Source: Candidatus Binatia bacterium (GTDB lineage: Bacteria > Desulfobacterota > Binatia > HRBIN30). Taken from it: 64,000 nt of DNA. Where the stretch lies: positions 8,508 to 72,507 of the forward strand of contig JBEKBJ010000009.1 in assembly GCA_050015455.1 (NCBI GenBank). The letters are read 5' to 3'. The notes under the pieces are model-generated. The model ran no database searches. It was not told the origin of the DNA and worked only from the letters and a program-made list of their open reading frames with translations. Positions 39,107 to 61,912 of this stretch are shown one piece after another. The position numbers and the translations under genes were made by a program. Position 1 is the first letter of the stretch; every line of letters begins with the position of its first letter.

Positions 39107-39904
39107 CTAGAGCCCGTGCTCGAGCGAGCGCTGGGTGAACGTGTCGTCTCCGAAACCGGGGTCGTACGTGATCTCGCTGAAGTCGGCCACGGTATGACTC
39201 CCACCCTGTTCGTTCATCATTTCCATGCGAAAGGCCGTCGGAATCGCCCCGACAGTGCGGATATCACGAAGGGTGAGCGATTTTTCCAGCCGGCCGCCCT
39301 TATCGTACATCTGGAACTTCACCATCACGAGATCGTCGGCCGTTAGCCAGGTGAGGATCTTGCTGTACGTGAGGTCCTTCCCGGTCGGGGTGAACTCGAT
39401 GACATGGCTGGGGCGGCCATCCAGTACCTCGTCGCGCAGCAAGACGGCACGGGCATCCGCGTCAGTCCAATCGGTGATGTCCCCGATTATGGCCAGATCG
39501 TCGTAACTGAAATCCGTCCCCATGAAGCTCTCGTGCTTGGCGCCCGCGCTGATTTGTCGGACGCGCTTCAGCTCGGGAAGATACAACCATTGCTCATCTT
39601 TCCCGTGTGGGTCGGCCCACTGCAGGAAGCCAACGCCTTTGACCTCCGGCGGCGATTCGAAGAACAGGATCGTGCGGCTGCGGTCCTCAGGATACTTCTT
39701 GGACTTGATGACGAGCTCGCGATTCCGCTCGCCGCCCCGACGGTCGACGATGCGCAGCTTCAAACGCTGCAGCCGATCGTTCCACTTGCGTGTGGTCTCG
39801 GCCAACAGTCGCGTCTGGTCGAGCAGCTCGCGCGCGGTTGTCGCCGCTGCGGCAGGCGCGGCGACGCACGCGAGGAGCATCAGGAAACCAAAGGTTCTGC
39901 GCAT
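39107..39904 (-). CDS. LolA-like outer-membrane lipoprotein-sorting family protein (the type commonly paired with MMPL/RND exporters)
   Basis: A signal peptide is present. At 265 aa it has the LolA-like half-barrel pattern (...RTILFFESPPEVKGVGFLQWADP...LYLPELKRVRQIS...). Confidence 0.55.
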   Translation of the reverse strand: MRRTFGFLMLLACVAAPAAAATTARELLDQTRLLAETTRKWNDRLQRLKLRIVDRRGGERNRELVIKSKKYPEDRSRTILFFESPPEVKGVGFLQWADPHGKDEQWLYLPELKRVRQISAGAKHESFMGTDFSYDDLAIIGDITDWTDADARAVLLRDEVLDGRPSHVIEFTPTGKDLTYSKILTWLTADDLVMVKFQMYDKGGRLEKSLTLRDIRTVGAIPTAFRMEMMNEQGGSHTVADFSEITYDPGFGDDTFTQRSLEHGL

Positions 39905-40025
39905 GTGACGTTCCTCCTATGTCATGATGTCGGCGAGGCCGGCCTCGTGACCGCCGGCGGTCAACCCACCGCCGCATTCCCACAGGCTGCGAGCTTATTC
40001 GCACCTCCCGACTTCTTGCCGAATT

Positions 40026-41627
40026 TCACAGCTTGTACTCGAGCCGGACGAAGCCTTCGTCGTTGCGCCGATATTGACCGATTAACGAACCGGCGCGTCC
40101 CGCAATGAACAAGTAACCGACCTGGGCATTCAAGTTGTCTGTAAGGCGGTACAGAAGCGTGGGGCGGATGAGCGTGTAATCGCTTTCAATTGCATGCATG
40201 CCGATCAGCTGCGTTTGCAATCGGTCCGCCAGAAAGCTCTTGCGCAAGTTGGCAAGCAGCCGCGTCTCGACGTTTTTGATCAATAGGTCCACGTCGTTGT
40301 GCAATACATCGGTTTGGTTCACCTGCAGGAGCAGGAGGTAGCCTTCGTAGACGTAATCGACCCCGAGGCCCCACTCGGCGGCGGAATGGATGACGGTGGC
40401 GGGAGGCAGCAGCACTGTTGCCTGGCCGGCGCCCTGGGTGAGTGCCGTCAAGGCATTCTTGATTTCGCCGGCGAGGGCTTGCGGATTCGTCACCAAGTCC
40501 CGCAGGTCGCGGGGGAAGGGGCGCCCGCTGACAAAAGCCCCCTCCCCGCGCACGGTGAAGCGATCAAACGCGTATGCGAAGTCCGCCCCCCATGAGTCGA
40601 TCCGGTGGAATTCGGGCGACAGGGTCGTGGCGCCGGACAAATCCTTCACGTGAAACGGATTGGCAAGGCTCGGATCGGGCTGGCCGAAAACCTGCGCCGT
40701 CAAATTGAACCCCGGCTCGATGTCGAAGCCGTGAAAGTAATACAGCGCCAGATCGACGTCGCGGATGAGCGCCGAGTAACGCACACCGACCGTGCTGTCA
40801 TTCAGACGCGTCGCCGGCGGCGCCACGTTGCGCACGCGGAAAGCGAGCGGCACATTGAACCCCGGACTGGGGCTCCCGTCGGGCAGAGTGATGAGGCCCG
40901 GCGGCACGAAGAAGTTGGGCGTCGGCACACCCGCCGGGGGAAACCAGCGTTCCGCATCGCAATGCGAGGCGTTGCCCTGGACATCACACGTCGCCAAAGG
41001 GAACCGAGGCGGCACATACTTCGGCACCCAAACGACGGTCAGACGGCTCTCCGGCGGGATGGCGGCGGTCTCCGGCAGATAATACGACGCCTGCAGGGCG
41101 GGCACACCGATCCGTTCTTCGGCTTCCTCTGCTAGGAACGGATCGAAGTAGGCGATGGGGTTGATCAAATTGTTCGGCTGCGTGCGGTCGAGCTTCCCCC
41201 AAGCCACCTTCTGGATGCCGAGGCGGAGATCGACGGAAGGGAGGACCATGCTGAGGTACGCTTCGTCGAACTCCACCGCGGGTGATATGTCCTGAAAGAC
41301 GCCATTCCACGAGTAGACACCGGCGCGGTCGGCTTTCAGCGTCGGGCCGCCATTCGTCCCGACCGTCGTCGCATCGAATCGGACCCACTTGGCCAGCTCC
41401 ACACCGACGTGCAGGCGTAACTCCTCCAGAGTCCGTTCGTGCTTGGTAGCCCCGTTCTCCTCGACGACTTCCCGGACGCGCAGGGTTCCGTCAAGATCAA
41501 GCGGCCGGCCGCCGACGGTCGTTTGCATCGGCCAGACGGCCGGGGCCGCTAACATCCAAACAACCACGACCAGCACCAACCAGATTCCTATCTTCGCCGG
41601 CATCCACCCTCTGGCCATCGTGTCCAC
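40026..41627 (-). CDS. Putative outer-membrane beta-barrel protein (DUF1302-like partner of the LolA-like protein)
   Basis: A signal peptide/TM is present at the N-terminus. The 533-aa protein has alternating beta-strand-like segments and ends ...VRLEYKL. The family is a guess from gene context. Confidence 0.4.
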   Translation of the reverse strand: MDTMARGWMPAKIGIWLVLVVVVWMLAAPAVWPMQTTVGGRPLDLDGTLRVREVVEENGATKHERTLEELRLHVGVELAKWVRFDATTVGTNGGPTLKADRAGVYSWNGVFQDISPAVEFDEAYLSMVLPSVDLRLGIQKVAWGKLDRTQPNNLINPIAYFDPFLAEEAEERIGVPALQASYYLPETAAIPPESRLTVVWVPKYVPPRFPLATCDVQGNASHCDAERWFPPAGVPTPNFFVPPGLITLPDGSPSPGFNVPLAFRVRNVAPPATRLNDSTVGVRYSALIRDVDLALYYFHGFDIEPGFNLTAQVFGQPDPSLANPFHVKDLSGATTLSPEFHRIDSWGADFAYAFDRFTVRGEGAFVSGRPFPRDLRDLVTNPQALAGEIKNALTALTQGAGQATVLLPPATVIHSAAEWGLGVDYVYEGYLLLLQVNQTDVLHNDVDLLIKNVETRLLANLRKSFLADRLQTQLIGMHAIESDYTLIRPTLLYRLTDNLNAQVGYLFIAGRAGSLIGQYRRNDEGFVRLEYKL

Positions 41628-41931
41628 GGTTCTGTCATTTCCTCCTGGTCAAGGCCTACGCGCCAGGTGCGAAGTCGCCCCACCCCGTGGCGCGGGCCGC
41701 AAACGCTTTTGGGCTTGAAACGTCGGACACGCTTTGCATAACTCAGCTGTCACTGTCAAGCGGAGAAAACCGTCCGTGAGAGACGACCAGCTGTCGCCGG
41801 CTCGCGCGGAGTCCTGCGGCCACCAAGCCAGTGACAGGCAGGATGGCAGATCGCGCTACTGTACCGAGGGGAATTTCGCGCCCACGGCCTTGATCATGGA
41901 GGGCGACGCCGTCAGCGTCGATGTGACGGCG

Positions 41932-43482
41932 TCATCGTGCGAGCGATTGGAAATCGGGCGCCTCGAGCTCGGCGAGCGTCGGATTCCACAATCCCTGCTT
42001 CCGCAGGATCCGGACATTGTGGACGTGAATTATGAGGGACAGCCCCAGGACATGCCCATCCTTGCCGTGGAAGAGCTTCACCGCTTCGCGCGGCACAGAG
42101 CGGAACTCTGCCCCCAGATCTGCGTACGCTTGGAGAAGATTCTTCCAGATTAACGCAAACCGCTGTGGGTTCCAGCTGACTGCCGCCGAGGGCTCTGGGG
42201 AGTGCTTCGCCAGCACTGCCACACGCTGCAAGAAGGCATCGGGAGTATAGAGCTTATTCAGTAGCCACTGTGTTCCATATTGCAGCTCATGAACTGTCAT
42301 TTGCTTGGGAATGATATTGGTACCCGTGTATCCGTCTTCCTCATTGAGCGTCCGTAACCGGTGCTCAGCACGGAGGCGCCGTTCGAGGGGCGTGCCCTCC
42401 GGCGCCACCAACATGTTGACCAGTACCGCAGGAATGCCCGCCTGTTGAAGGAACTCCAGCTGCACGCGAAAGGAGTCCTTGGTGTCCGCATCGAAGCCGG
42501 TAATGATGCCAGCTTCAACCGAGATACCTCGTCGCTGGAAGGCGCGGATGTCAGCGATCAGATCGGGTCGCAGGTTCTGCTGCTTTCTTACCTGGCGCAG
42601 CGCTTCGTGGTTGGGCGTCTCGATCCCAATGAAAGCCTGCCTGATACCCGCTTCGGCAGCGAGGTCCAGCAGCCCGGGATCACGCGCAGCGTCGATCGAC
42701 ACCTGGGCTGCAAAGGTGACGCGTTCGGGCTTACCGCGGTTCCACTGGCGAATGGCTTCCAAGATGCCCTTGGCGTGCTTGCGGTGGGCGGTCAGGTTGT
42801 CATCCGCCAGAAAGCCCTCGCGGTAGCCGAGCTGATAGAGTTGCTCGATCTCGGCGACTACGCGCTCGGGTCTCTTGTATCGCTGCCGGCGGCCGAGGTA
42901 GACGATCACATCGCAGAACTCGCATTCGAAGGGGCAGCCGCGACTCGTCTGGACGATCCCCACCCAGTACGCTCCACGCTTGACCTTGCCCATTGCCGGG
43001 AGCGGCGAGTGGTTGAGGTCGACCGGATTCCGCTCCCGGTACTCCGACTTCCAGGAGCCGGCACGGAGATCCGATAGAAACTGAGGCCAGGTCCGTTCGG
43101 CCTCGCCGATGAAGAGAATGTCGGCATGGGGACGCACGGTACTGGATGACAGGGTGGCGTACGGGCCGCCGATGGCCACTAGGTTCCCATGCTGGCGGAA
43201 CACGTCCGCCAGCTTGAGCATACGATCCCTGTGCGTGATGTAGCCGGTGATGCCGACCACGCCCCAGCGTTCGCTCAAATACGGCTCAATGCTTTCGAGC
43301 TGCTCGTCTACGATAGTGACGTTGACATCACTGGGGGCCAAGGCCGCCAATGTAGGCAGCGCGATGTTGGGCGTGTACGCCGCACAACCGGTGATGTCGG
43401 CGGTCTCATTCATGGAGTACAGCGACGGCTTCTGGCCCGGGCTCACCAACAAAACTCGCACCGCGTACTCCTGAGTTGACAC
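41932..43482 (-). CDS. B12-binding-domain radical SAM protein (class B)
   Basis: The N-terminal cobalamin-binding Rossmann-like region (RVLLVSP...IGGPYATL) is followed by the radical-SAM motif SRGCPFECEFC. Confidence 0.8.
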   Translation of the reverse strand: MSTQEYAVRVLLVSPGQKPSLYSMNETADITGCAAYTPNIALPTLAALAPSDVNVTIVDEQLESIEPYLSERWGVVGITGYITHRDRMLKLADVFRQHGNLVAIGGPYATLSSSTVRPHADILFIGEAERTWPQFLSDLRAGSWKSEYRERNPVDLNHSPLPAMGKVKRGAYWVGIVQTSRGCPFECEFCDVIVYLGRRQRYKRPERVVAEIEQLYQLGYREGFLADDNLTAHRKHAKGILEAIRQWNRGKPERVTFAAQVSIDAARDPGLLDLAAEAGIRQAFIGIETPNHEALRQVRKQQNLRPDLIADIRAFQRRGISVEAGIITGFDADTKDSFRVQLEFLQQAGIPAVLVNMLVAPEGTPLERRLRAEHRLRTLNEEDGYTGTNIIPKQMTVHELQYGTQWLLNKLYTPDAFLQRVAVLAKHSPEPSAAVSWNPQRFALIWKNLLQAYADLGAEFRSVPREAVKLFHGKDGHVLGLSLIIHVHNVRILRKQGLWNPTLAELEAPDFQSLAR

Positions 43483-43603
43483 TGCACCTAGTGCCCCTCT
43501 GAGCCAAGATCAACGAAATCGGCGCGAGACCTCACGCTGCCGTAGCCGATTTGCCAGGCGGAACGAAGCTCAAGGGCCCGAAGATCGAGTCGCGGGAATA
43601 CCA

Positions 43604-45778
43604 TCAAGACGATGCGACCTTGCGAGCACGTGCGTAGCGGAGCGGGCGCGACTCCATCTCCGTATGTGCTTCAGGTGGAGTGGATCGACCGCCCGCGTCG
43701 CACGGCGGCAGATTGACGCAAAAGCTGCTTCCGTGGCCCTCGCGGCTGTCAACAGTGATAGAGCCACCGTGCTCGCTAACGATTTGATGAGCGATGGCCA
43801 AACCCAGACCCGTCCCCTTGCCCTTCGTGGTGAAAAAGGGGTCGAAGATGTGTTCGAGCTGGTCTGGTGGGATACCGACGCCCGTGTCTTGGATCTCAAT
43901 TTGACCGAAGGCGCCATTTTGATGATCGACGCAGCGAGTGGAGATTGCGACGACGCCGCCGGGTCGGGTCGCCTGAATCGCGTTCAGGACCAAATTGATC
44001 AACACCTGCTTGATTTGGTCGCCGTCGGCATTGACGAGCGGAACATTTGCCGAAAGCGCGCGCGTCAGGGTCAGATTGTGTTTTCGCGCTTCCGGTTCGA
44101 GCAGCGTCGCCACGCGCTCCACCAGCTCGTTGAGATTCACGGCGGCCAAGGAAGGAGTGCTGGAGCGAGCGAAGGACAGCAATTCCGTGATCAGGTCGGA
44201 GATACGTTTGACCTCATTAGCGGTCATGCCGAGGAAAGTGGTGAAGAACTCCTGGTCATGCAGTCGCTGCGGGGCCAGTTGGAAAAACGTCTGGATCGAT
44301 ACCAGCGGATTCCGCACCTCGTGCGCGATGCCGGCTGCCAGCGTGCCTAGTGCGGACAAGCGGTCCGCGCGGCGGATGATGTCTTGTGACTTCTTCAGCT
44401 CCTCGTACAGCCGTGCGTTTTCGAGCGCGACCGAAGCTTCAGCGGCGAGGGTCTCGAGCAAATCGAGGTCCTCCGCAGAGAAGGCTTCGAGGTTTCGCTT
44501 ACCGCCCAGGCCGATGAACCCAAGAAGCTTCTCACCGAGGATCAGCGGGATGCAAACCTCCCAGCCGTTACGGCGGCAGAGCTCGCTTACGGCTGTGCGC
44601 GCCGCCACGTCGGTGCCGGCCACCAGTTCCTCACGCAGCACGACTTCCCGGCTGTGTGCCAGGGAGCGCACGAACTCATCGCTTTCGGCAAACTCGGCCT
44701 GCGCCGAATTCTCACCGAGCTGGTAGCGCACCGAATATGTTTGCCTCATGTCGTCCCGCAGCCAAACGCCGACCCGGCTCACGTGCAGTGTGTAACTCAG
44801 GGTCGAGGCGATCTCGCGGATGAGCTTCTCGTGTTCCAAGATCCGAACGATGGAGCGAGCGAAACTACCGAGTGCGGTACGGTATTCGCTCTTCTCGCGG
44901 AAGAAGGTCTGCTGAATCCGGGACTGCGCTTGAATCCGAAGGACAGGGAACAGCACTGCGATGGCCACGAACATCAACAGCACGGCAAACGAGAAATCCG
45001 GTTGCACGTGGCCGAAGGCGAGCCGTTGTAACCACACCATGAGCGCGAAGGCTGGCCCGATGAGAATGCAAGCCACTGCGGCGTAGGCTACCCCTTTGCT
45101 CACGACGACATCGATGTCCATCAACCGGTGGCGCGCGATTGCGTAGGCGATGATCGCCGCGTACAGCGCGCTGCCAAAATGACCGAGTGGGTAGATCGGA
45201 ACGCCGAAGATCGGCAGGAAGTTGGTCAACCCCGTGGGAAGGACGGCGGCAGCCAACAACCAAAACCGTACTTGCAGCTTGCGCCGCGGGGAGGTCGTGG
45301 TGTGGTAGTGATGGATGAGCACGCCTAGCGCCAAGGTGCATTGGATGACCGCTGCGGCGATGAAGACGCCGTAGAGACGTGTGCCAACGGGGTAGAGGCC
45401 CCACGCGTAGTGCCGTGCGCCAGAAACGAGGAGCCCGAGCGCGTTGGCTACGATCAGCCCAGCGGAAACGGAATAGCTGCATCCGAGCAGCCAACGGGAC
45501 AGCGATTTTGGGGTACCCGCAAGCGTGAGCGCGAGGTGCAGAACGGTAGCTGGCACGAGTATCGTGCCGGGCCTGAGGATACTGCCCCACCACAACGCGC
45601 GGCTGGGGTCGGGTATGGCGTAGAATACGAAGTTGTTCAGGTTCCAGAGTGCCAGCGCCACGCCCATCAGCACGAAAACCTGATTGAGGCGTGCGCGCCG
45701 GTCACGCGCGAGCACCAGGACGCCCAGCAACAGATTGAGCACGGCGGAGATCAGCGGGACGAGCCAGTGATACTTCAT
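43604..45778 (-). CDS. Sensor histidine kinase, PrsK-like architecture (multi-TM N-terminal domain, GAF, HisKA, HATPase), paralog 1
   Basis: There are ~8 predicted TM helices in the first ~300 aa, then a GAF-like region. The H-box is AAGIAHEVRNPL, followed by the N/G1/G2 boxes (DTGVGIP...GTGLGLAI). The start ATG overlaps the stop of the upstream acyltransferase gene (ATGA). Confidence 0.75.
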   Translation of the reverse strand: MKYHWLVPLISAVLNLLLGVLVLARDRRARLNQVFVLMGVALALWNLNNFVFYAIPDPSRALWWGSILRPGTILVPATVLHLALTLAGTPKSLSRWLLGCSYSVSAGLIVANALGLLVSGARHYAWGLYPVGTRLYGVFIAAAVIQCTLALGVLIHHYHTTTSPRRKLQVRFWLLAAAVLPTGLTNFLPIFGVPIYPLGHFGSALYAAIIAYAIARHRLMDIDVVVSKGVAYAAVACILIGPAFALMVWLQRLAFGHVQPDFSFAVLLMFVAIAVLFPVLRIQAQSRIQQTFFREKSEYRTALGSFARSIVRILEHEKLIREIASTLSYTLHVSRVGVWLRDDMRQTYSVRYQLGENSAQAEFAESDEFVRSLAHSREVVLREELVAGTDVAARTAVSELCRRNGWEVCIPLILGEKLLGFIGLGGKRNLEAFSAEDLDLLETLAAEASVALENARLYEELKKSQDIIRRADRLSALGTLAAGIAHEVRNPLVSIQTFFQLAPQRLHDQEFFTTFLGMTANEVKRISDLITELLSFARSSTPSLAAVNLNELVERVATLLEPEARKHNLTLTRALSANVPLVNADGDQIKQVLINLVLNAIQATRPGGVVAISTRCVDHQNGAFGQIEIQDTGVGIPPDQLEHIFDPFFTTKGKGTGLGLAIAHQIVSEHGGSITVDSREGHGSSFCVNLPPCDAGGRSTPPEAHTEMESRPLRYARARKVASS

Positions 45779-46422
45779 CGCGCGCTCGTGTCCTCACCAG
45801 CCGGCGCAGCGAAGGCCGCGTTCAGCAGATGGTTGGCGGCGGCGTAGCGCGCCGGCAGGTCGACCATGTGCAGCCGCATCAACAAGTGCGGTACCCCACC
45901 GAAGGGCAGGTAGGGAATATTCGGCGGGGTCAGCGCCTCGAACAGAATGGACTCGTACATCTTTTGTACGGTTGGCACCGCGCAGATGAAGATATCGTCA
46001 ATGTTCTGCATCTGGCAGACATCGTAGAGGAGCCGAATCAGGCCCAGGTAAACCTGCATCGCCCGCGTGATGCGCCGAAACGGCGCAGCGATGCAAAGGC
46101 GCGTGGTTTCCCCCGGGGGGTGTCCCGGGCGGAGGAACGGCGTGAGATCGAGGCTGGTTTCCATTTCGAACGGCCGCCCCGTAGGGCCCAGCAGGCGGAT
46201 CATTCCCACCGCCTCACCGGCTTCCGACATGGCGAGCAGATGAATCGCGCGCTCGTCTATGGGCCCCCACTCTACCGCCCGTGGTCCGTAGCCGAGCTCG
46301 TCGCCGTAAACCGCTTGCCGGAGCTGCAAGATTGCCTCGCGTCGGTGTGGCCCCGCAACCTCGAAGCACAAACGCCAGGATTCCACGGGGCAAATCGTAT
46401 TATGCTCTGCTGTTGACTTCAA
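45775..46422 (-). CDS. GNAT-fold N-acyltransferase resembling N-acyl-amino-acid / autoinducer (LuxI-like) synthases ('exosortase-system-associated acyltransferase'-like)
   Basis: At 215 aa, weak LuxI/NAS-like features are visible (W..CFEV, DE.A.HLLA, IRLL). The gene is divergent from an ACP-KAS pair. It begins with TTG and the RBS is weak. Confidence 0.45.
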   Translation of the reverse strand: MKSTAEHNTICPVESWRLCFEVAGPHRREAILQLRQAVYGDELGYGPRAVEWGPIDERAIHLLAMSEAGEAVGMIRLLGPTGRPFEMETSLDLTPFLRPGHPPGETTRLCIAAPFRRITRAMQVYLGLIRLLYDVCQMQNIDDIFICAVPTVQKMYESILFEALTPPNIPYLPFGGVPHLLMRLHMVDLPARYAAANHLLNAAFAAPAGEDTSAR

Positions 46423-46466
46423 GGAGCACGTTGGACGATATTGTCACTCTCTCTTCGTCGAGAGTT

Positions 46467-46742
46467 ATGATCCAAGAACCGGCTCAACAAGCGCCCTCGA
46501 TAGAAGAAGTCAAAGCAACCCTGCGACGGCTCATCGGGGAGATCGGGGATTTGGACGCCGATTCGATCACCGATTCCTCCACGCTGGATGAAGATATTCC
46601 GCTGCCGTCGATCCAGTTCATCGAACTGCAAGTCGCCGTTGAAGACATTTTCGATATCCAGCTCGACCCGGTAGAGATCGTTGAGCGAAATACATTTGGG
46701 GCGATTGCTGCCCTAATCTGCGATAAGGTCCGTGCAAGTTGA
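46467..46742 (+). CDS. Acyl-carrier-protein-like small protein
   Basis: The 91-aa acidic protein has an ACP-like helix II region (LDEDIPLPSIQFIELQVAVEDIFDIQL) with a Ser for phosphopantetheinylation. ATG 46467 lies within the larger track ORF 46281..46742. Confidence 0.5.
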   Translation: MIQEPAQQAPSIEEVKATLRRLIGEIGDLDADSITDSSTLDEDIPLPSIQFIELQVAVEDIFDIQLDPVEIVERNTFGAIAALICDKVRAS

Positions 46743-46751
46743 CTACCGTGA

Positions 46752-48026
46752 GTGCCGTGTGATTTTGCGATGAGAGAAGGCGTACGGGCCGTGCGGCGCG
46801 TGGTGATCACTGGGATAGGCCTCATTGGACCGACCGGAGTTGGGCTTCGGGCCTTCTGGGAGTCCCTGCTGGAAGGCCATTCAGGCATTGGCCGCATCTC
46901 CCGCTTCGACCCGAGCCCGTACCAGTGTCAGATTGGCGGCGAGGTACGTGACCGGAGTTACGAAGAGCTGCTGGATCCGCGCCAGCTCCGCACCACGACG
47001 CACGCCACACAGCTGGCCCTTGGGGCGGCCGAGCTGGGGCTTCGGGACGCGCGCCTCTCACCAACTTACTACGACCCGGCCCTCATCGGGGTCAGCATCG
47101 GCACCGCAATAGGTGGTTGGCGAGATCTCGCACAGCAACACGCTATCCTGCTTGAGCGCGGCGCCCGCCGCGTCAACCCTTTCATCGCCAACGGCACCCC
47201 GAATCATACCAGCGGCGTCGAACTTGCCGGCGCGTTCGGTGCGTGCGGAGGCCACTTCACCTTTTCGTGCGGCTGTCCGTCTAGTCTCCAGGCCATCGGC
47301 CACGCGGCAACCCTCGTTGCCACAGAAGAGTTGGACGTCTGCTTGGCGGGCGGTACGGAGAGCCCACTCACCCCAATGATCTTCGCCGGCATGGGCCGCA
47401 CCCAGGAGCTGTGCACAATCAACGACGATCCGCAGCACGCCAGCCGGCCCTTCGACCGTGCCCACGCCGGCATCGTTCTCAGTGAAGGCGCCTGTATCTT
47501 GGTACTGGAGTCGGCCGAGCATGCCGCTCGACGAGGCGTGGCACCGTACGCGGAAGTCGTCGGTCACAGCTCATCCTGCGACGCCAAGGGTTTGTACAAT
47601 TTCGACCCGAGCGGCGAAACCGGCGCACGGGCGATTCACCGACTCCTCCAGCGGACCGGTGTGCCTGCAACGGAGATTCACTACGTTTGCTCACACGCGA
47701 ACTCATCCCCGGCATTCGACCGCAAAGAAACGGTCGTCATCAAGAAAGCCTTCGGCGAGTGCGCCGCGCGCCTGCCGGTCAGCTCGATCAAGGCCGTGCT
47801 AGGACACCTGTTCGGTGCCTCCGGCGCGTTCCAAGTGGCTGCGGCGGCCTTGGCCATCCGCAACCAAACTGTACCGCCGACCCACAACCTCGAAGTTCCG
47901 GACCCGAAATGCGATCTGGACTATGTGCCCCGACAGGCACGCCCGGCACACATTCGCAACGCGCTGGTCACCAGCTATGGGTACGGGGGCGTGAACTCGT
48001 ACCTGCTGGTAACAGAGACTCACTGA
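46752..48026 (+). CDS. Beta-ketoacyl-ACP synthase (KAS I/II family), paralog 1
   Basis: The N-terminal VVITGIGLIGPTG region and active-site Cys/His/His regions are collinear with FabF/FabB. The C-terminus ends GYGGVNSYLLV. Confidence 0.85.
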   Translation: MPCDFAMREGVRAVRRVVITGIGLIGPTGVGLRAFWESLLEGHSGIGRISRFDPSPYQCQIGGEVRDRSYEELLDPRQLRTTTHATQLALGAAELGLRDARLSPTYYDPALIGVSIGTAIGGWRDLAQQHAILLERGARRVNPFIANGTPNHTSGVELAGAFGACGGHFTFSCGCPSSLQAIGHAATLVATEELDVCLAGGTESPLTPMIFAGMGRTQELCTINDDPQHASRPFDRAHAGIVLSEGACILVLESAEHAARRGVAPYAEVVGHSSSCDAKGLYNFDPSGETGARAIHRLLQRTGVPATEIHYVCSHANSSPAFDRKETVVIKKAFGECAARLPVSSIKAVLGHLFGASGAFQVAAAALAIRNQTVPPTHNLEVPDPKCDLDYVPRQARPAHIRNALVTSYGYGGVNSYLLVTETH

Positions 48027-48210
48027 AGCCGGGGAAGTGGCTGCTCACAGCAGCCGCGCCGTAGCAACGTGGTGAATCTGGTTCGTGCCCTCGAAGATCT
48101 GCATCAGCTCGGCATCGCACACAAGCTTCCGCCCGCCCTTCGAACATGCTCAAGGTGAGCGGACAGCGTTGTCGTAGGGACGTGCCGGTTAGCTCCGGTG
48201 GCGCAGGATA

Positions 48211-50400
48211 CTACGAGGCGGCCTGACGGCGAAGCGCGTAGCCGAGGGGAGCCGATTCGGCGGCTGCAACTGACTGGCCTGCCAGGGCGGACACGACTTC
48301 CTCGACGTACGCCGGGAGATTGACGAAGACGGTTGTCCCCCAACCCTCGCGGCTCTCCACGGTAATGGAGCCGGCGTGTTCAGTGACGATCTGATGCGCG
48401 ATGGGCAACCCCAACCCCGTTCCCTTGGCCTTCGTAGTGAAGAAAGGGTTGAAGATCTCTTCCAAGTGCTCCGGCGCGATGCCGGCCCCGGTATCGCGGA
48501 CCTCCAACTGCACCAAATCCGCGTTGCCATTTCGCACCGTCCGGCTGCTGATCGATACCGCGCCTCCTGGCTCCGTGGCCTGAATGGCGTTGAGAATCAG
48601 GTTGATCAGCACCTGCTTGATCTGATCGCCGTCGGCGCACACGAGTGGGAGGGCCGGCGCCAACCCGCGGGTCAGCGTCAGCTTCCGGTTCTTGGCTTCC
48701 GGCTCTAGCAGCGTGACGACGCGCTCGACGGCTGCGTTGAGATCCAGCGGCCCGAACGCCGCTGTCGGCGAACGGGCAAACGACAAGAGTTCCGTGATCA
48801 GATTCGCAATCCGATTCACCTCACCGGCTGTAGTGTTCAGAAAGGTGGTGGAGAATTCGTGGTCATGCAGACGTTCCGGCGCCAACTGAAAGAAGGTCTG
48901 GATCGACACCAACGGGTTGCGGATTTCGTGGGCGATGCCGGCAGCCAAGGTGCCCAGGGCGGAGAGGCGGTCCGCGCGGCGGATTATATCCTGTGACTTC
49001 TTGAGTTCGTCATACAGACGGGCGTTTTCTAGAGCGATGGCTGCTTCCGCGGCTAGGGTGTTGAGCAACTCAAGATCACCGCTGGAGAAGAGCTCGAGGT
49101 TGCGCTTGCGTCCCAAGTTGACGAAGCCGACGAGCCTGCCGCTGATCGTCAACGGCATCGACACTTCCCAGGCGTTGACTCGGTAAGAATCGCGAATTGC
49201 GGCGAGCTCCGACGAAGCTGCTGCCGCCTCCAACTCCTCGCGGAGGACCGTCTCGGCCCGCTGCGCTAGCAAGCGCACGAGGACATCGCCCCTCGCAAAC
49301 TCTTCGGTTGTCGGGGCAATTCCCGCGCTATGCTGCAGGTGGTACGCTTGATCCGGTGCTTGCAGGAATATCGCCACCCGGTCCAACTGCAGCACCCGTA
49401 TGAGTGTATCGGCCAGCTCACGTAGCAGCTTCTCGCGGTCCAAAATGCGGACGATGGTGCTGGTGAAGCCCGCCAGGGCCGCGCGGTACTCGTGTTTTTC
49501 GCGAAAGAGAGACTGCCCAACGCGTCGCTCGGTGCGGCCGCGTAACAAAGGAAACAGGGCGGCGACCAAGAAGTACGAAACCAAGAGAGCTGTGGAAAAG
49601 TTGGCGTCAAGGTGGCCGAAGCTCTGCTTCTGGATCCAAACAATCAACGTGAAGACCGGGGCGATCAGCGCGAGGGTGCCCAGGGTGTAGCCCACACCCT
49701 TTGTTATAACGATGTCGATGTCCATGAGGCGGTGCTGAACCATGGCGTAGGCCATAAGGCCCGTAAAAGCGGCGCTGGCGAGACTTCCGAGCGGGTAGAT
49801 GGGCACGCCGTACACGGCCAGCAGGTTCGTGGCACCGAGCGGTGCCGCAATCGCCAACGCAAGAAGTAAGAAGCGGGCTTGCAGACGTACGCGGGCTGAG
49901 CCGCTATGCTGATATGCGTACGTGAGCACGCCCAGAGAGAGTATGGCGTTGCCAGCGAAAGACGCTGTGTGCAGGGAGTACAAAGGTTGCGGGCGCGGGT
50001 AATAGCCCCACTGCACCCACTCCACGCGCGAGACCAACATGTCCAATGAATTCGCGGCAACCAGCACGATCCCGATTGCGTAGCTGACCAAGAGTACCGG
50101 GCGCACCCACCGCGCCTTTGTGTCGGTAAAGACCACCGCACAGTGCAGGAACGTCGGCGGCATGAGCACCATCCCGACGCGAAACAGTCGAGACCAGAAG
50201 AACGCCTCCTCCGCCGTAGAGGCGTAGTCCAGAGAGAAGATGTCCATATTCCAGAGCACAATCGTGAGGGACATCAAGGCGAAGGTTTGGTTAACCTGGC
50301 GCTTTTTGTCGTGCTGGTAGACAAAGAGGCACAGCCACAAGTTGGCCAGTGCCGCCACGAGCGGGGCGACCCAGTGGAATTGGGGAGCCCCGTCCGTCAC
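48211..50400 (-). CDS. Sensor histidine kinase, PrsK-like, paralog 2
   Basis: Same architecture as paralog 1; the kinase core is nearly identical (KKSQDIIRRADRLSALGTLAAGIAHEIRNPLVSIQTFFQLAPERLHD). I take the start as GTG 50400, which overlaps the TGA of the upstream KAS gene (GTGA) and gives 729 aa, versus 724 aa for paralog 1. The track ORF extends to 50520. Confidence 0.75.
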   Translation of the reverse strand: MTDGAPQFHWVAPLVAALANLWLCLFVYQHDKKRQVNQTFALMSLTIVLWNMDIFSLDYASTAEEAFFWSRLFRVGMVLMPPTFLHCAVVFTDTKARWVRPVLLVSYAIGIVLVAANSLDMLVSRVEWVQWGYYPRPQPLYSLHTASFAGNAILSLGVLTYAYQHSGSARVRLQARFLLLALAIAAPLGATNLLAVYGVPIYPLGSLASAAFTGLMAYAMVQHRLMDIDIVITKGVGYTLGTLALIAPVFTLIVWIQKQSFGHLDANFSTALLVSYFLVAALFPLLRGRTERRVGQSLFREKHEYRAALAGFTSTIVRILDREKLLRELADTLIRVLQLDRVAIFLQAPDQAYHLQHSAGIAPTTEEFARGDVLVRLLAQRAETVLREELEAAAASSELAAIRDSYRVNAWEVSMPLTISGRLVGFVNLGRKRNLELFSSGDLELLNTLAAEAAIALENARLYDELKKSQDIIRRADRLSALGTLAAGIAHEIRNPLVSIQTFFQLAPERLHDHEFSTTFLNTTAGEVNRIANLITELLSFARSPTAAFGPLDLNAAVERVVTLLEPEAKNRKLTLTRGLAPALPLVCADGDQIKQVLINLILNAIQATEPGGAVSISSRTVRNGNADLVQLEVRDTGAGIAPEHLEEIFNPFFTTKAKGTGLGLPIAHQIVTEHAGSITVESREGWGTTVFVNLPAYVEEVVSALAGQSVAAAESAPLGYALRRQAAS

Positions 50401-51641
50401 AGCAAGTCCTGTGCGCCAAGCAGTAAGAAAGCATTGACGCCACCGTAGCCAAAATTCGATATCAGAGAGCGCCGAGGCCGCAACGATCGCGGGACGTTGG
50501 GGACGTAGTCCAAATCGCACTCCGGATCGGGTTCGATGAAGTTGATAGTTGCCGGAAGGATGCCGCGGGTCATCGCGAGCGCCGTTGCGCCCACCTGGAA
50601 CGCACCTGCCGCGCCGAAAGAATGGCCGAGCATCGACTTGATCGAGCTAATCGGGATCTGGTGGGCGCTCTCGCCAAAAGCGCGCTTTAGGACTCGCGTC
50701 TCCTTGCGATCCCAGTTCGGACACGAGCTGCCGTGGGCGCTGACGTACTCCACCTCGCCTGGAGAAACCTGGCTGCGCCGCAGCGAAGCCAGCAGTGTGG
50801 CGATGGCGATTTCACCCGTCGGCTCCAAAGCGTAGGCGTCCTGGGCCTCCGATCCAATGGCGTGCCCGAGCACCTCAGCGTAAAGGGGCGCGTCGCGCAG
50901 CTTAGCATGGGCCAACTCTTCGATGACCAGCACGGCGCTGCCCTCGCCGACGACAAGCCCCTCGTGGTCCTTATCGAAGGGGCGCGATGCCTCCTCGGGC
51001 GCGCCGTTCTTCTTGGCCAAGTCGCCTGCTCGGCACATTGCGGCAAAGACCAGCGGTGTTACAGGGCTCTCAGCGCCGCCGACAATGCACACGTCAAGAA
51101 CGCCCGACCGGATCAGGTCAGCACCCGCCGCGATGGCACAAAGGCCAGAGGCACACGCTGCTGACTGCGTGAAGTTTGCTCCCGCCGCCCTGGCTTCGCT
51201 CGCAACCTCGCTTACGGTCGAGTGATAATACGTTGCCAAAGTCAGAAACGGGTTGATCCGATTCGCCCCGCGCTCGAGCAGTATGGTGTGTTGCTTCTCC
51301 GCGTCGCTCAAGCTGCCAAGCGACGTTCCCAACACCACCCCGGCCCGCATCGGGTCATATCGCGGGCGCTCGAGGCCGGCGTCATTGAGCGCCAGGCGCG
51401 CTGCGCCCACTGCCATACGCGTCACGTGTGGCATGCGCCGGGCGCGTTTCGGCTCCAGAAGATCCACATAGCTTTCGTCGATGACCTCTGCTGCAATCCG
51501 CGAGGGGTAGCCCGAGGCGTCAAAGCGGGTCACCGGACCGACGCCGGAACGCCCTTCCATCAACCCCGACCAGAAGGCTTCCTTCCCGATACCGGTGGGG
51601 CCAACAACGCCGATGCCCGTAATGACGATGCGTCGCTGCAC
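50397..51641 (-). CDS. Beta-ketoacyl-ACP synthase (KAS family), paralog 2
   Basis: The region MQRRIVITGIGVVGPTGIG... is collinear with KAS enzymes and with the paralog at 46752. Confidence 0.85.
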   Translation of the reverse strand: MQRRIVITGIGVVGPTGIGKEAFWSGLMEGRSGVGPVTRFDASGYPSRIAAEVIDESYVDLLEPKRARRMPHVTRMAVGAARLALNDAGLERPRYDPMRAGVVLGTSLGSLSDAEKQHTILLERGANRINPFLTLATYYHSTVSEVASEARAAGANFTQSAACASGLCAIAAGADLIRSGVLDVCIVGGAESPVTPLVFAAMCRAGDLAKKNGAPEEASRPFDKDHEGLVVGEGSAVLVIEELAHAKLRDAPLYAEVLGHAIGSEAQDAYALEPTGEIAIATLLASLRRSQVSPGEVEYVSAHGSSCPNWDRKETRVLKRAFGESAHQIPISSIKSMLGHSFGAAGAFQVGATALAMTRGILPATINFIEPDPECDLDYVPNVPRSLRPRRSLISNFGYGGVNAFLLLGAQDLL

Positions 51642-51850
51642 GCTAGACTACCAGGGAGCGAGGCCACTGCACTTGGCGGCTGCGCTCGTCGACTCGCACA
51701 ATAGTGGGCATGCGGAGACGCTTGACCTGCATGCTTCGCCCTCAGCTCACTCCGGACCAAAGTGTACGGCGACACGGTTTGCACTGTCAAGCGAAACCGT
51801 ACTTGCGAAGCCACGGCAGCCCCGGCTTGGGGCTGTGAGAAACGGGAAGG

Positions 51851-54202
51851 TTAGTTCCCGGCGGTGGCTCGTATGCGGGCGGTGACAGGCCAGGCGTAGC
51901 CCATCGGTACCGCACCTAACATCTTCGGCCGCGTCGTGATGAACAACGCCGGGATGATCGTGAGCGTGGCCAACGCGCTAACGCCCATCATCAACGCCGT
52001 GAGCACGCCGAGATGAATCCAGGCGCCGAATCCCGAAAGCGGCAAAACCAAGTAGCCCAAGGCGACCGCTGACGAGACGAAAAAAATTGCCTTTCCCGAG
52101 GTGAGCAGGCTGGCACGCAGCGCCGCCGCCAGATCGCCATCGTGCTGCTGCAGCTCTTCCCGAACCCGGAAGATCAGGTAGATGGCGAAGTCGGCGCCGA
52201 TGCTGATCGCCGTCGAGGTGATGGCCGCCGTCGCCAGACTCAGCCAGGTGTGCGACCAGCCCATGATCCCGAGATTGACCACCACCGAAACCGCCAGTGG
52301 CGTTAGCACAATCAGACCACCGACGAACGACCGCAGGACCAGCGACGAAAGCAGAAAGATGATCACCGTCACTTGTATAACGTTCAGGATCTTCTCGCGC
52401 ACGATGACCTCGTTCATCGCCGTCTGTACGCCCAACGCGCCGCCGGCGAGATGCACCTCCGCCGGCAGTCCCTGAAAACGCTGCGTCACATAGGCGCCGA
52501 GATCGTTGAACAGCTCACGTCCAAACTCGGCACCGTCGGTCTTGGCGTAGGCGCGGATGACGGAGAGGCGGTGGGACGAATCGATGACCGAGGTGAAGTC
52601 GTTCGGTCCGGAGAGCGAATACAGAAAGAGGTATTGCGCGATCAGCCGCTTCGTATCGGGAATGGCGTAGTAGGCCGCGTCGTCATTGTTCATGGCCCGA
52701 TGCATGCGTTTGACGTAATCCGCCATCGAGGTGGCGGCACCGATTCCCTGCCGCTTTTCGAGAAAGTCCTCCACGTCGCTCATCGCCCGCAACACGCCGG
52801 GATCCTCGATGTCCCCTTCCTCTTGTCCCTCGACCAAGAGGGTCAAGGTCGACGTGCCGGCCAGGTGCTGGTTCAGCAACGCGTCCGCCTGGCGCACGGG
52901 TGAACTTGCGGGGAACCAGCCCTTGAAACTGTTATCGACCTTCAGTGACAGTGCCCCGATGAAGAACAGGACCACAACTGCCATGGAGACGAGCAGCACG
53001 GCCTGGGGCCGTCGCACCACCAGTGCGGCGATCCATTCCAATCCCGTCTTGAGAATCCACCCTTCTTTTTCGCGTGCGACCTCACGCCCGCGAGGGGCCG
53101 GCAGCATCGCCCGGCAGGCCGGCGTAAAGGTCATCTCGATTATCAACGCACTGACGATGCCGCAGGCCAGCAGCAAGCCGAAGACGCGCACGCTGGTCAC
53201 GCCGAAAGCCACCAGCGACCCGAATCCCGCCGACGCAATCAGTCCCGCGGTCAGCATCACCGGCCCGACCGCAGTGACCGAGCGGATGACGGCGAGCTTG
53301 CTGTCGCCTACCTGCGCGAACTCTTCATAGTAGCGCTTCAGGATCTGTACGGCATGGCCCGCGGCGATGGCGAGTATCACCACGGGGGTGACGGCGCTCC
53401 AGGTGTCCATTGGCTGACGCAGCCAACCCATGATGCCCAACGACCAGATGACGCTGAGCAAGGCCGTGGCCAAGGGCAAAAACACCGCCTGCAGGGTGCG
53501 GAAGGCTTCGTAGTGCACCAATCCGATGACCATGACGGCGATCGGAAACAGAATGGCCATCATCGCCGTGTAGCGTGCGGCTGAGGCGCGAATCATCGGC
53601 GCGCCACCCAACACCACGTCCGCATCCGCGTCCCGTTCGCCCGCGACCACCGATTCCACTTCGTCAACGATGGCCTCACCCGTGAGCTCGCCGTTGAAAT
53701 CGACGACGATCAGTGCCGCGCTGCCGTCGGCGGCGACCAAGGTCCCCTTGTAGAGTTTGTCGCTGAAGACTTCCTCTTTCAGCTGCGCGATGGCGGCGTC
53801 GTCGTGCGGCGCTTCGGCCATCAGCGGGCGCACCTCCATGCCGTCAGCGGTACCCTTGATGAATTTCACTCGCTCCGCTGCGATGCTCAGGACATTGTTG
53901 GCCACCGCACCCGGCAGTTGCCCGACGAGGCGCGTAATGCGCACAATCTTCTCGAGGATGGGCGGGGTGAAAATGTCCCCGTGGCGGGCGATGACACCGA
54001 TGATGAGTGTGGTCTCTCCGCCGAAAATGTCCGCGATGCGATTGTGGACTTGAACGTACGGATGACTCTGCGGCGTCAGCGCCCGCTGGCGGATCTCCAG
54101 GCGCACGTGGGGGAGCTGCGTCGCGAGCAGCGCCGTAGCCGTCAGAACCGCCATCAGCACCGCGAGGCGATGCCGCACGATGAACGTGACATACCGCTCC
54201 AT
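51851..54202 (-). CDS. MMPL/RND-superfamily exporter (lipid-exporter type, HpnN-like topology)
   Basis: There are two blocks of ~6 TM helices, each followed by a large periplasmic loop (12 TM in total). Size and pattern match MMPL proteins. I take the start at ATG 54202 (MERYVTF...). Confidence 0.75.
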   Translation of the reverse strand: MERYVTFIVRHRLAVLMAVLTATALLATQLPHVRLEIRQRALTPQSHPYVQVHNRIADIFGGETTLIIGVIARHGDIFTPPILEKIVRITRLVGQLPGAVANNVLSIAAERVKFIKGTADGMEVRPLMAEAPHDDAAIAQLKEEVFSDKLYKGTLVAADGSAALIVVDFNGELTGEAIVDEVESVVAGERDADADVVLGGAPMIRASAARYTAMMAILFPIAVMVIGLVHYEAFRTLQAVFLPLATALLSVIWSLGIMGWLRQPMDTWSAVTPVVILAIAAGHAVQILKRYYEEFAQVGDSKLAVIRSVTAVGPVMLTAGLIASAGFGSLVAFGVTSVRVFGLLLACGIVSALIIEMTFTPACRAMLPAPRGREVAREKEGWILKTGLEWIAALVVRRPQAVLLVSMAVVVLFFIGALSLKVDNSFKGWFPASSPVRQADALLNQHLAGTSTLTLLVEGQEEGDIEDPGVLRAMSDVEDFLEKRQGIGAATSMADYVKRMHRAMNNDDAAYYAIPDTKRLIAQYLFLYSLSGPNDFTSVIDSSHRLSVIRAYAKTDGAEFGRELFNDLGAYVTQRFQGLPAEVHLAGGALGVQTAMNEVIVREKILNVIQVTVIIFLLSSLVLRSFVGGLIVLTPLAVSVVVNLGIMGWSHTWLSLATAAITSTAISIGADFAIYLIFRVREELQQHDGDLAAALRASLLTSGKAIFFVSSAVALGYLVLPLSGFGAWIHLGVLTALMMGVSALATLTIIPALFITTRPKMLGAVPMGYAWPVTARIRATAGN

Positions 54203-54292
54203 CACGCGCTCCGAGCTTTTAAACTGAGCGCACATACTACTTTTTGGCTCCGTCAACAAGGATAACTTGTACTCGCTGCCTGCGTGGGGCCG

Positions 54293-55306
54293 TCACAGCC
54301 TTTCGATCGCGGCGGCGATTTCGCGCGTGACGCCGTCGCGCACGGCCTTGGCTGCCACCTTGATAGCGTTCTTGATGGCGCCGGCGTTTGAGCGGCCGTG
54401 CGATTTGATCATGAGGTGCTCGAAGCCGAGGATCGGCGCCCCGCCGTACGCGGCGTAGTCAGTGAGATCCCGCAAGCGGCCGAAACTGTTCGCCAACATG
54501 AAGAAGCCCAGCTTCCAGCGCCAATTGTCGCGGCGCGCCGTTCCCGCTAGGTCAACGACCACTTCGGCTAAGCCCTCCAGCAACTTTAGCACAACATTGC
54601 CGAGCAGCCCCTCGCAGACGATAACGTCCGCCTTGCCTTTGGCGAGGTCGTTGCCTTCGATGTTGCCGACGAAGTTGAGGTCTGGAATGCGCTTGAGGTA
54701 ACGGTGCGCGTTGACAAGGGCGTCGCCTCCTTTGGTCTCCTCGGCGCCCATGTTGAGCAGAGCCACCCGTGGGCTCGGTACCTTGGAGACGTGGCGCGCA
54801 TAGGCACTGCCCATCAAGGCGAACTGCACGAGTTCCGTGGTATCACAACGGATGGTTGCGCCGACATCGAGCAACAGCGCCAGTTGATCCTGGCCGGGGT
54901 ACTCGGTCTGGCGCGGATACACGCTGGCCAGCGCTGCCTTGCGTACGCCGCGGACTATCTTGAAGTGTTGTCCGCAAGCCAGCACGGCGGCGCCCGTGTT
55001 GCCGGCGGTCACTACAGCGTCGGCCTCCCCTTCGGACACCAATCGCGCTGCCACCAGCACGGAGGCGTTGCGCTTCTGCCGCAGCGTGCGCTTCGGGTCC
55101 TCCGCCATGGAAATGAAATCGCGGGTGTGGTGGACACCGATGTGCGCCGGGTTGTAGGGAACGCGATCGAGAGCGGCCTGGATCTGCGCCTCGTCGCCCA
55201 CTAGCGTGCAGTGGATGTCAGTCTCAAGCGAAGCCTGCGCCACACCTTTGACTACCTCTTCGGGAGCGAGATCCCCGCCCATGGCATCAACAGCAATGGT
55301 CGGCAT
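54293..55306 (-). CDS. plsX: Phosphate acyltransferase PlsX
   Basis: The motifs IAVDAMGGD ... GNTGA ... GFEHLMIKSHG match the PlsX family. The start is ATG 55306 (MPTIAVDAMGGD). Confidence 0.85.
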   Translation of the reverse strand: MPTIAVDAMGGDLAPEEVVKGVAQASLETDIHCTLVGDEAQIQAALDRVPYNPAHIGVHHTRDFISMAEDPKRTLRQKRNASVLVAARLVSEGEADAVVTAGNTGAAVLACGQHFKIVRGVRKAALASVYPRQTEYPGQDQLALLLDVGATIRCDTTELVQFALMGSAYARHVSKVPSPRVALLNMGAEETKGGDALVNAHRYLKRIPDLNFVGNIEGNDLAKGKADVIVCEGLLGNVVLKLLEGLAEVVVDLAGTARRDNWRWKLGFFMLANSFGRLRDLTDYAAYGGAPILGFEHLMIKSHGRSNAGAIKNAIKVAAKAVRDGVTREIAAAIERL

Positions 55307-55411
55307 AGCTGGGAATGACTCCTCAACGGCTGTTTGCATACCGTCAGCCGGCGGAGTTGACAATATTGCGTCCTTTCTCTAACCAAGTAGTTCGTTCGGC
55401 TGGAGACCAGC

Positions 55412-59751: not shown

Positions 59752-59829
59752 GTTTGTCTCTTCCTTCAGTCTGGGGAGACCCTCACCCGGGGTGCTCCGT
59801 GGGTTTTCGCAAGGCTACCGCATCGATGT

Positions 59830-60234: not shown

Positions 60235-60253
60235 CCTGGTTGTCTTCCGTCGC

Positions 60254-61723: not shown

Positions 61724-61912
61724 GCTGTCCTCCCGCGGTGCCAGCATGTGGTGCTGGCCGAGCATGCGCCGGTGTTCCCTCCCCGGCCGGGCAGGCGGAG
61801 CACCCGGCGTCAGGCCATCAGCCTCGGGGGTGTGGCTTCATCATAATCCTCGAAATACTCGAACACCTCGCGAACAGCCGTGCGCCTTCGCTTTGCCCCG
61901 GCGCAGAGCGCC

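Follow-up and report, generated by a model that had tools for sequence, protein, structure and literature searches.

A FeeM-like acyltransferase and a ketosynthase coupled to PrsK-like sensor kinases in a lipid island of Candidatus Binatia

Why should a bacterium couple the translation of membrane sensor kinases to that of lipid-biosynthesis enzymes? The question is raised by a metagenome-assembled genome (MAG) of a Candidatus Binatia bacterium, of which we analyzed a stretch of 64,000 nucleotides (the window; contig JBEKBJ010000009.1). Six genes at 43604-51641 are arranged as follows. On the minus strand, a histidine kinase gene (kinase 1, 43604-45778(-), 724 amino acids (aa), NCBI MGD0946657.1) follows a gene for a FeeM-type GNAT N-acyltransferase (45775-46386(-), 203 aa from GTG 46386, NCBI MGD0946658.1), and a second kinase gene (kinase 2, 48211-50400(-), 729 aa, NCBI MGD0946661.1) follows a gene for a FabF-like β-ketoacyl-acyl carrier protein (ACP) synthase (KAS2, 50397-51641(-), 414 aa). 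Between these two minus-strand arms, on the plus strand, lie the genes for a dedicated ACP (46467-46742(+), 91 aa), divergent from the GNAT gene across an 80-bp spacer (46387-46466), and for a second FabF-like synthase (KAS1, about 46770-48026(+); candidate starts GTG 46752, ATG 46770 and GTG 46791). Open reading frames (ORFs) and domain calls agree with the six-gene layout, with its two coupled kinases and divergent ACP and KAS genes, given in a preliminary description of this DNA; the NCBI annotation of the same MAG has the GNAT and both kinases at the same lengths, and several metagenome contigs carry an identical locus. The answer that we favor, with a probability of roughly 45%, is that the locus belongs to a conserved module, comprising a synthase, an exporter and a receptor-kinase, which would make, export and sense a lipid.

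Both couplings are read directly from the sequence, where they had first been placed: the kinase 1 ATG overlaps the GNAT TGA as ATGA (45778-45775(-)), and the kinase 2 GTG overlaps the KAS2 TGA as GTGA (50400-50397(-)). Purine-rich motifs resembling Shine-Dalgarno sequences, GGTGAGGA about 12 nt and AGGA about 8 nt upstream, lie 5′ of the two kinase starts. By itself, a 4-nt start/stop overlap is unremarkable, being common in operons. It is the conservation of the pairings that exceeds chance.

To collect related loci, GTDB species genomes were scanned with the N-terminal sensor of the kinase, which gave 79 loci. Sensor identity is at least 35% in 28 of them, mostly MAGs labelled Binatia, and 25 of the 28 could be assessed. 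A FeeM-like GNAT gene stands beside the kinase gene, co-directional or divergent, in all 25, and in 20 of the 22 co-directional loci the two genes are spaced by -4 to +23 nt. Genes for an MMPL transporter, ACP and KAS travel with the pair. Two gene orders recur: form A, which reads MMPL> <KAS1 <(acyl-CoA dehydrogenase) <ACP and then GNAT> kinase>, and form B, which reads <MMPL <GNAT and then kinase>, occasionally twice. When the GNAT is taken as the starting point, four of four distant GNATs (22-29% identity) are followed by a kinase gene, three of them with a divergent ACP gene; an OlsB-like outgroup GNAT has no kinase downstream. A scan of GTDB species genomes with a profile of the GNAT alignment found no relative. 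A search of 1.84 billion proteins gave 222 representatives of the GNAT family at E <= 1e-3; for so small a family, adjacency to the kinase is not chance. The pairing of enzyme and kinase is conserved far beyond chance, and the functional tie first proposed from the overlaps gains from the conservation of the coupling across related loci.

The KAS arm is conserved as well. Orthologues of kinase 2 proper, with sensor identities of 56-75%, lie in plsX> MMPL> KAS> kinase> operons, in which the KAS-kinase gaps are -4, -4 and +7 nt. Distant seven-transmembrane (7TM) kinases of Nitrospirota, Desulfarculaceae and others also follow a KAS gene, some with genes for a B12 radical-SAM enzyme, a membrane methyltransferase or an MMPL protein. 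These kinases are therefore linked with lipid genes beyond Binatia as well. KAS operons with distant 7TM kinases occur, in Nitrospirota and unclassified MAGs, at L038:3643-10106(+), L043:5382-10100(+) and L085:375-11797(+) (the L numbers designate related loci); L038 and L085 add a B12 radical-SAM gene, and single loci also have MMPL or a methyltransferase of ICMT/PEMT-like or SAM-dependent type.

With each of the two enzyme partners, tight spacing (overlaps and gaps of -4 to +23 nt) persists across lineages. This is typical of proteins required in a fixed ratio, and could mean that enzyme and kinase act as a complex. The membrane domain of the kinase would then recruit or control GNAT or KAS, or the substrate state of the enzyme, i.e., its acyl-ACP load, would gate the kinase, with no free lipid ligand. 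Such a complex seems unlikely to us, as the GNAT gene is divergent from the kinase gene, and not co-translated with it, in nine related loci.

What kind of enzyme is the GNAT? It matches the Pfam FeeM model (PF21926) over profile positions 2-157 of 158, scoring 38.1 bits against a threshold of 27. The AlphaFold2 (AF2) model of the protein has a predicted local distance difference test score (pLDDT) of 88.7 and a predicted template-modelling score (pTM) of 0.85, and its best PDB match in Foldseek is FeeM (2g0b; TM-score 0.72/0.77, E 2e-9); acyl-homoserine lactone synthases match the model with TM-scores of about 0.61-0.64. Sequence identity with FeeM is only about 14-16%, and a profile made from close GNAT homologues had zero matches among PDB sequences. 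The match to FeeM settles the earlier concern that the ORF might lack an acyltransferase fold, and, as modelled, the GNAT is a real FeeM/LuxI-fold acyltransferase. Its homologues place it in a distinct small subfamily. The motif E93-T-T-R96 (E-x-x-R) is invariant among close homologues, the equivalence of its Glu to that of FeeM being judged by motif alone. The preliminary description had the gene start at TTG 46422. That start, like TTG 46329, is an alternative to GTG 46386, which is the best supported of the three because the NCBI pipeline and the homologue N-termini agree on it: the N-terminal pattern ‘xxxxL.FE..GP.RRE’, read from this GTG, is kept in homologues. A Shine-Dalgarno sequence was looked for upstream of GTG 46386 and none was seen.

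The remaining enzymes and the carrier look competent as well, judging from their conserved residues. The ACP scores 31 bits with the Pfam PP-binding model (PF00550; threshold 20.8). Within its motif ‘PLPSIQFIEL’, Ser48 matches in alignment the Ser that carries phosphopantetheine in the solved ACP 2cnr, and it is kept as xS[VI]xFVEL in 19 related loci, the preceding residue usually being Q, E, N or K and not the usual Asp; thus, the phosphopantetheine Ser on which the ACP assignment had been made to depend is present. KAS1 and KAS2, which are 49% identical, each carry both ketoacyl-synthase domains in Pfam. Their scores of 389 and 398 bits with the FabF/KAS II model TIGR03150 fall under its equivalog cut-off of 493.75, which marks both as FabF-like and not as the housekeeping FabF equivalog. 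When KAS1 is aligned with KAS II 1e5m, its Cys, His, Lys and His coincide with the catalytic residues of the latter, and KAS2, aligned to KAS1, retains the Cys-His-His triad and the Lys. KAS1 orthologues in related loci are 52-74% identical to it.

In Pfam, both kinases consist of HisKA_7TM, with about nine transmembrane helices, followed by GAF, HisKA and HATPase_c. The AF2 model of kinase 1 has a pLDDT of 78 over the whole chain and of 75-94 through most of the sensor part. For kinase 2, the 729-aa start retains the family-invariant Trp of ‘HW’, which a 715-aa start would lose. The two kinase cores had been described as almost identical and thus recently duplicated. Neither statement survives. 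Identity is 52% overall, being 40% in the 7TM segment, 47% in GAF, 82% in the dimerization and histidine phosphotransfer (DHp) domain and 65% in the ATPase domain, and the near-identical DHp stretch is a property of the family: its motif, SALGTLAAGIAHE.RNPLVSIQTFFQLAP, is invariant across 27 members. Third-codon identity is about 0.5 even within DHp, i.e., synonymous sites are saturated. Because DHp is invariant family-wide, third codons have diverged and kinase 2 has orthologues of its own, the duplication is old. Third-codon identity and family-wide invariance likewise rule out a recent gene conversion of the core. A rough neighbor-joining (NJ) tree nests the kinase 2 clade within the GNAT-coupled kinases. 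The shared DHp would point to a partner regulator common to both kinases. The cores are closest to AtoS and ZraS, the partners of which are sigma-54 regulators.

Where does the signal go? The preliminary description had found no cognate response regulator here, and we agree: there is none within 43.6-51.6 kb, and tblastn found zero sigma-54 AAA+ proteins across the whole window, the receiver domains of which are confined to 59.4-63.8 kb, where they accompany a PAS kinase distinct from kinases 1 and 2. Related loci are more informative. Downstream of the kinase, the next gene of many form-A relatives specifies a protein of about 790 aa with a 7TM and GAF-sigma-54 AAA+-HTH_8 organization and no receiver domain. 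Its first ~450 residues are the same 7TM + GAF module as in the kinases. One-component activators of this type, beside the GNAT-kinase module, are at L009:10300-12717(+), L011:12103-14490(+), L087:13485-15845(+) and L045:495-2984(+); none is present in the window. Since the same sensor is fused to an activator beside the module, the sensor is reckoned to read something local to the island. Form-B loci encode NtrC-type regulators with a receiver domain, which score 349-402 bits with the PrsR model (cut-off 502.6). Derivation of the kinase 2 sensor from that of the activator was considered and rejected: the two are 31% identical, compared with 40-47% for kinase 2 and kinase 1, and the NJ nesting also speaks against it.

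The architecture of the kinases recalls PrsK, and the preliminary description had assigned them to the PrsK class that controls PEP-CTERM/exosortase and exopolysaccharide (EPS) regulons. The full-length alignment and the architecture bear this out, as TIGR02916 (PrsK) aligns end to end with kinase 1 (model positions 7-679 of 679) and kinase 2 (5-679). The scores do not: 208.7 and 157.2 bits, respectively, against an equivalog cut-off of 300, with relatives' kinases at 132-158 bits. For the GNAT, TIGR03694, the exosortase-associated acyltransferase model proposed for it, is the sole NCBIfam match, and its 33.3-33.6 bits fall so far short of the cut-off of 111.95 that the assignment must be given up. 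None of 98 GNAT relatives and none of 18 kinases scanned reached the TIGR03694 and PrsK cut-offs; the best TIGR03694 E-value among the 98 is 9.8e-21, estimated still to be under the cut-off. No PEP-CTERM tail was found on the window ORFs, and Pfam and gene-table scans of the window ORFs scanned had no match to exosortase or EPS families, so that the 64-kb window offers none of the context that had been supposed. From the sub-cut-off scores and the lack of exosortase and PEP-CTERM genes in the window, it follows that the island is PrsK-like in architecture and not a PEP-CTERM system.

Canonical PEP-CTERM/exosortase regulation, in which PrsK kinases and an exosortase-associated acyltransferase would control EPS and PEP-CTERM proteins, is accordingly disfavored and, in our judgment, highly improbable. 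The end-to-end TIGR02916 alignment and the sole NCBIfam match of the GNAT are what one would expect of such a system. Synthases of N-acyl amino acids have, moreover, been linked to PEP-CTERM loci (Craig et al. 2011, according to the passages that cite it in PMC11072679 and PMC7293339). Apart from the scores, however, PrsK and PrsR are in tandem in 12 of 13 genomes (Haft 2006, PMC1569441), whereas the window has no tandem PrsR; and the related loci are surrounded by lipid genes, not EPS genes.

The lipid genes of the window are not confined to 43604-51641. The island extends on both sides, with an MMPL exporter on the KAS2 side, and with LolA-like and DUF1302-like proteins and a B12 radical-SAM enzyme on the kinase 1 side. 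The transporter gene (51851-54259(-), 783-802 aa depending on the start) encodes an MMPL/HAE3-type RND protein, with 157 bits for Pfam MMPL and 218 bits, under the cut-off, for TIGR00921; it is probably a lipid exporter. MMPL adjoins a KAS gene in L009-L011, L015, L016, L032, L087, L088 and L094-L096. Beyond it lies the gene for the PlsX phosphate acyltransferase (54293-55363(-), Pfam FA_synthesis), probably a housekeeping flank gene, which stays upstream of MMPL-KAS2-kinase 2 in L094/L095. On the other side, a LolA_like/TP_0789-like protein (39107-39904(-), 265 aa) resembles periplasmic carriers of lipid or lipoprotein (PF17131, 178 bits; also a weak DUF1329 match), its gene has a good Shine-Dalgarno sequence before the start, and it is a probable outer-envelope partner of the exporter. 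The DUF1302-like putative outer-membrane protein (40026-41627(-), 533 aa; PF06980, 32 bits against 23.2) holds the same position in L001/L002. The B12-type radical-SAM enzyme (41932-43482(-), 516 aa, or 493-509 aa by gene callers; Pfam Radical_SAM and DUF4070) matches BchE, HpnR and ladderane-type lipid radical-SAM models weakly, far under each cut-off. Its gene is also found downstream of the kinase in L011 and L088, and the enzyme is a candidate acyl-chain modifier.

Two-component systems beside RND pumps are common, and MMPL is the most constant neighbor of the module. Might the kinases simply be efflux or envelope-stress regulators, controlling the pump against hydrophobic toxins, with their adjacency to KAS and GNAT mere operon packing? 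Kinases of that kind are normally paired with a response regulator, and none adjoins in the co-directional GNAT-kinase or KAS-kinase loci examined. Mere packing would also fit poorly with the rare GNAT family, whose genes accompany the kinase in 25 loci out of 25. We thus regard efflux control as very unlikely.

Comparison of chromosomal positions shows how the island is put together. L087 and L094 share the slot of the window, adjoining the 2-oxoglutarate dehydrogenase operon. The content of the slot, between plsX-MMPL and that operon, varies among related Binatia, as is seen when window 39107-55363 is set against L087 and L094/L095: in one relative it holds only KAS-kinase 2, and in another KAS1, an acyl-CoA dehydrogenase, ACP, GNAT, kinase 1, a desaturase and the activator. 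Since both arms occur in the window and they are separate in L087 and L094, the window combines two module types. Compared with these loci, the window lacks both the acyl-CoA dehydrogenase and the sigma-54 activator, KAS1 following directly after ACP. Elsewhere, an acyl-CoA dehydrogenase-family gene lies between ACP and KAS1 (L008:5846-7009(-), L087:7871-9013(-)) or between MMPL and KAS1 (L088:6118-7299(+)).

The module that we propose for making, exporting and sensing a lipid would work as follows. A special acyl chain, carried by the dedicated ACP, would be built or extended by KAS1, and the B12 radical-SAM enzyme may modify the chain; the acyl-CoA dehydrogenase in relatives' modules suggests an unsaturated acyl chain. 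The FeeM-type GNAT would then move the chain to an amine, most likely that of an amino acid, giving an N-acyl amide. MMPL, with its LolA-like and DUF1302 partners, would carry the product out of the inner membrane. The 7TM-GAF kinases would be receptors for the product or for a related lipid, allowing product sensing or autoinduction. Kinase 1 would be made in a fixed ratio with GNAT, and kinase 2, an older paralogue, with KAS2; the target of both would be an NtrC-type sigma-54 regulator whose gene lies elsewhere. We infer the identity of the product, its binding by the kinases and the identity of the response regulator.

Several observations weigh against this proposal. The kinase-2-type modules of L094-L096 have neither GNAT nor a dedicated ACP, and an N-acyl amide made next door therefore cannot be the ligand there. 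Two distant members of the GNAT family have Leu in place of the FeeM-like Glu. No receiver-domain or sigma-54 activator gene is found within 43.6-51.6 kb, and motifs of the sigma-54 -24/-12 type are not enriched in the window (21 matches compared with 31.7 expected). All the related loci come from MAGs. Finally, MMPL with its outer-envelope partners and plsX, together with the desaturase, WS/DGAT, P450 and acyl-CoA dehydrogenase of relatives, fit bulk lipid remodelling equally well. The earlier suggestion that the locus makes an acylated small molecule, such as an N-acyl amino acid, thus stands in part: GNAT, ACP and KAS look competent, but since the KAS-kinase arm occurs in relatives without GNAT and ACP, an N-acyl amino acid from a neighboring GNAT is not the whole story.

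The main rival is suggested by these same neighborhoods, namely that the locus is a membrane-lipid homeostasis island, in which the 7TM kinases, like DesK, sense the thickness, fluidity or packing of the bilayer and not a specific product. Its outputs would be elongation by KAS, modification by the radical-SAM enzyme, desaturase and acyl-CoA dehydrogenase, aminolipid synthesis by an OlsB-like GNAT, and export by MMPL. Nearly all the neighbors are indeed membrane-lipid genes (plsX, MMPL, LolA-like, DUF1302 and FabF-like KAS), to which relatives add genes for a fatty-acid desaturase, WS/DGAT, an LPG_synthase_TM protein, a P450, a PlsC-type acyltransferase and an acyl-CoA dehydrogenase. The occurrence of the KAS-kinase arm without GNAT is also in keeping with it, as is the match of the Pfam Acetyltransf_5 (OlsB family) model to the GNAT. 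FeeM is nevertheless the better match, the OlsB model being touched, weakly, by two of 50 GNAT-family members, and the window has no OlsA-type O-acyltransferase. Moreover, a bilayer sensor has no obvious need of translational coupling to one enzyme in more than 20 lineages, and the second, one-component copy of the same sensor is left unexplained. Homeostasis is possible, on balance, and we rate it as doubtful.

A broader and quite tentative form of the proposal for a lipid made and sensed by one module is that Binatia and relatives have a novel class of lipid autoinducer. The signal, an N-acyl amide, would come from a FeeM-type synthase provided with an ACP and KAS of its own; its reader would be a 7TM-GAF module, GPCR-like in kind, with two outputs, the coupled kinase and the one-component sigma-54 activator. 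If this is true, acyl amides or related acyl lipids are the long-sought ligand class of HisKA_7TM/PrsK-type sensors, and a lipid ligand would account, too, for the tracking of PEP-CTERM systems by N-acyl amino acid synthases.

Transcription signals and the rest of the window are described briefly. Scans of the region for sigma-70 promoters and terminators gave overall counts not above chance. A sigma-70-like TTGACT-18-GATATT at 46413-46442(+) lies just before the ACP gene, although such matches are not above chance in the region; another, TTGACA-18-TACACT at 51790-51761(-), is in the 209-nt gap upstream of KAS2. An Rfam scan of the window at gathering threshold had zero matches. The remaining window holds general metabolism and unrelated genes, among which a few stand out. 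A cluster at 14232-19589(-), about 25 kb from the island, encodes methylmalonyl-CoA mutase, biotin carboxylase and a propionyl-/methylmalonyl-CoA-type carboxyltransferase, and could supply branched extender units. An unusual redox-enzyme fusion at 61916-63832(-), a 4Fe-4S dicluster and CCG (heterodisulfide-reductase-like) protein with a C-terminal receiver domain, lies upstream of the PAS histidine kinase (60254-61765(-)) and single-domain receivers (59833-60354(-) and 59368-59814(-)). The 217-aa product of 57447-58100(-) is, by eye, an apparent tandem pair of one ~100-aa domain, with the repeated pattern W.E.FA...A...G...LTE.HW.VI.FLR. Two adjacent ORFs at 3202-7595(+), with DUF7107 and PD40, encode large proteins that are probably secreted or on the surface, as is probably the 1015-aa FG-GAP repeat protein of 23018-26065(+).

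How does the island compare with known systems? Among the closest are PrsK/PrsR with TIGR03694, of the XrtA/PEP-CTERM type, which share the multi-transmembrane-GAF-HisKA-HATPase kinase, the GNAT like FeeM and N-acyl amino acid synthase (NAS), and, in related loci, sigma-54-type regulators. The kinase stimulus is obscure in both, and was so described when PrsK was defined in 2006 (PMC1569441); the two papers that name HisKA_7TM list it as no more than a sensor domain and give no ligand (PMC5847659, PMC6944256). The island differs in its sub-cut-off scores, in having neither a tandem PrsR nor exosortase, PEP-CTERM or EPS genes nearby, and in the coupling of its kinases to a GNAT or KAS gene among lipid genes. 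The island hints at a stimulus, and through it a class of ligand might be assigned to sensors that are widespread and still orphan.

With the FeeM/NAS N-acyl amino acid synthases, the GNAT shares the Pfam family PF21926 and the fold. Their donor is presumably acyl-ACP, and here a dedicated ACP gene is adjacent. Low identity sets the GNAT apart, as does its membership in a small subfamily always paired with a 7TM-GAF kinase; no such pairing is reported for fee or nas clusters in the literature searched. The role of FeeM/NAS-type synthases has so far been seen only through genetic linkage to PEP-CTERM systems, whereas this rare branch is coupled to a 7TM-GAF sensor in every relative examined, start-to-stop in most of the co-directional ones. 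Full-text literature searches returned no paper in which a sensor kinase is connected with an NAS or FeeM enzyme, nor any on lipid clusters of Binatia.

OlsB/GlsB systems with MmpL/HpnN export are alike in having an Acetyltransf_5-clan GNAT that uses acyl-ACP, as predicted here, in their membrane-lipid neighborhood, and in an RND/MMPL exporter with periplasmic and outer-membrane partners. They differ in that matches of the GNAT family to the OlsB model are weak or absent, that the window has no OlsA-like second acyltransferase, and that ols and gls loci lack coupling to a kinase (review PMC11631085).

In genetic logic, a parallel is found in quorum sensing, where the genes of synthase and receptor-kinase are paired as luxM-luxN, ainS-ainR and cqsA-cqsS, with LuxO as the sigma-54 regulator that they feed. 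As in these, the gene of an acyl-signal synthase, here a putative one, adjoins that of a polytopic membrane histidine kinase, co-directional or divergent, and it does so whether loci are collected from the kinase (25 of 25) or from the GNAT (four of four); a sigma-54 NtrC-family regulator would stand downstream in both. In contrast to LuxM/AinS or the pyridoxal phosphate-dependent CqsA, the enzyme here is a FeeM-type GNAT, and the sensor domain is a different one with an added GAF; no histidine phosphotransfer (HPt) protein or LuxO is identified here. Judged by its sequence, the locus is most aptly called a variant of PrsK-like and FeeM-like type set within an island of lipid genes, and it could uncover lipid signaling, or control of lipid homeostasis, in an uncultured phylum.

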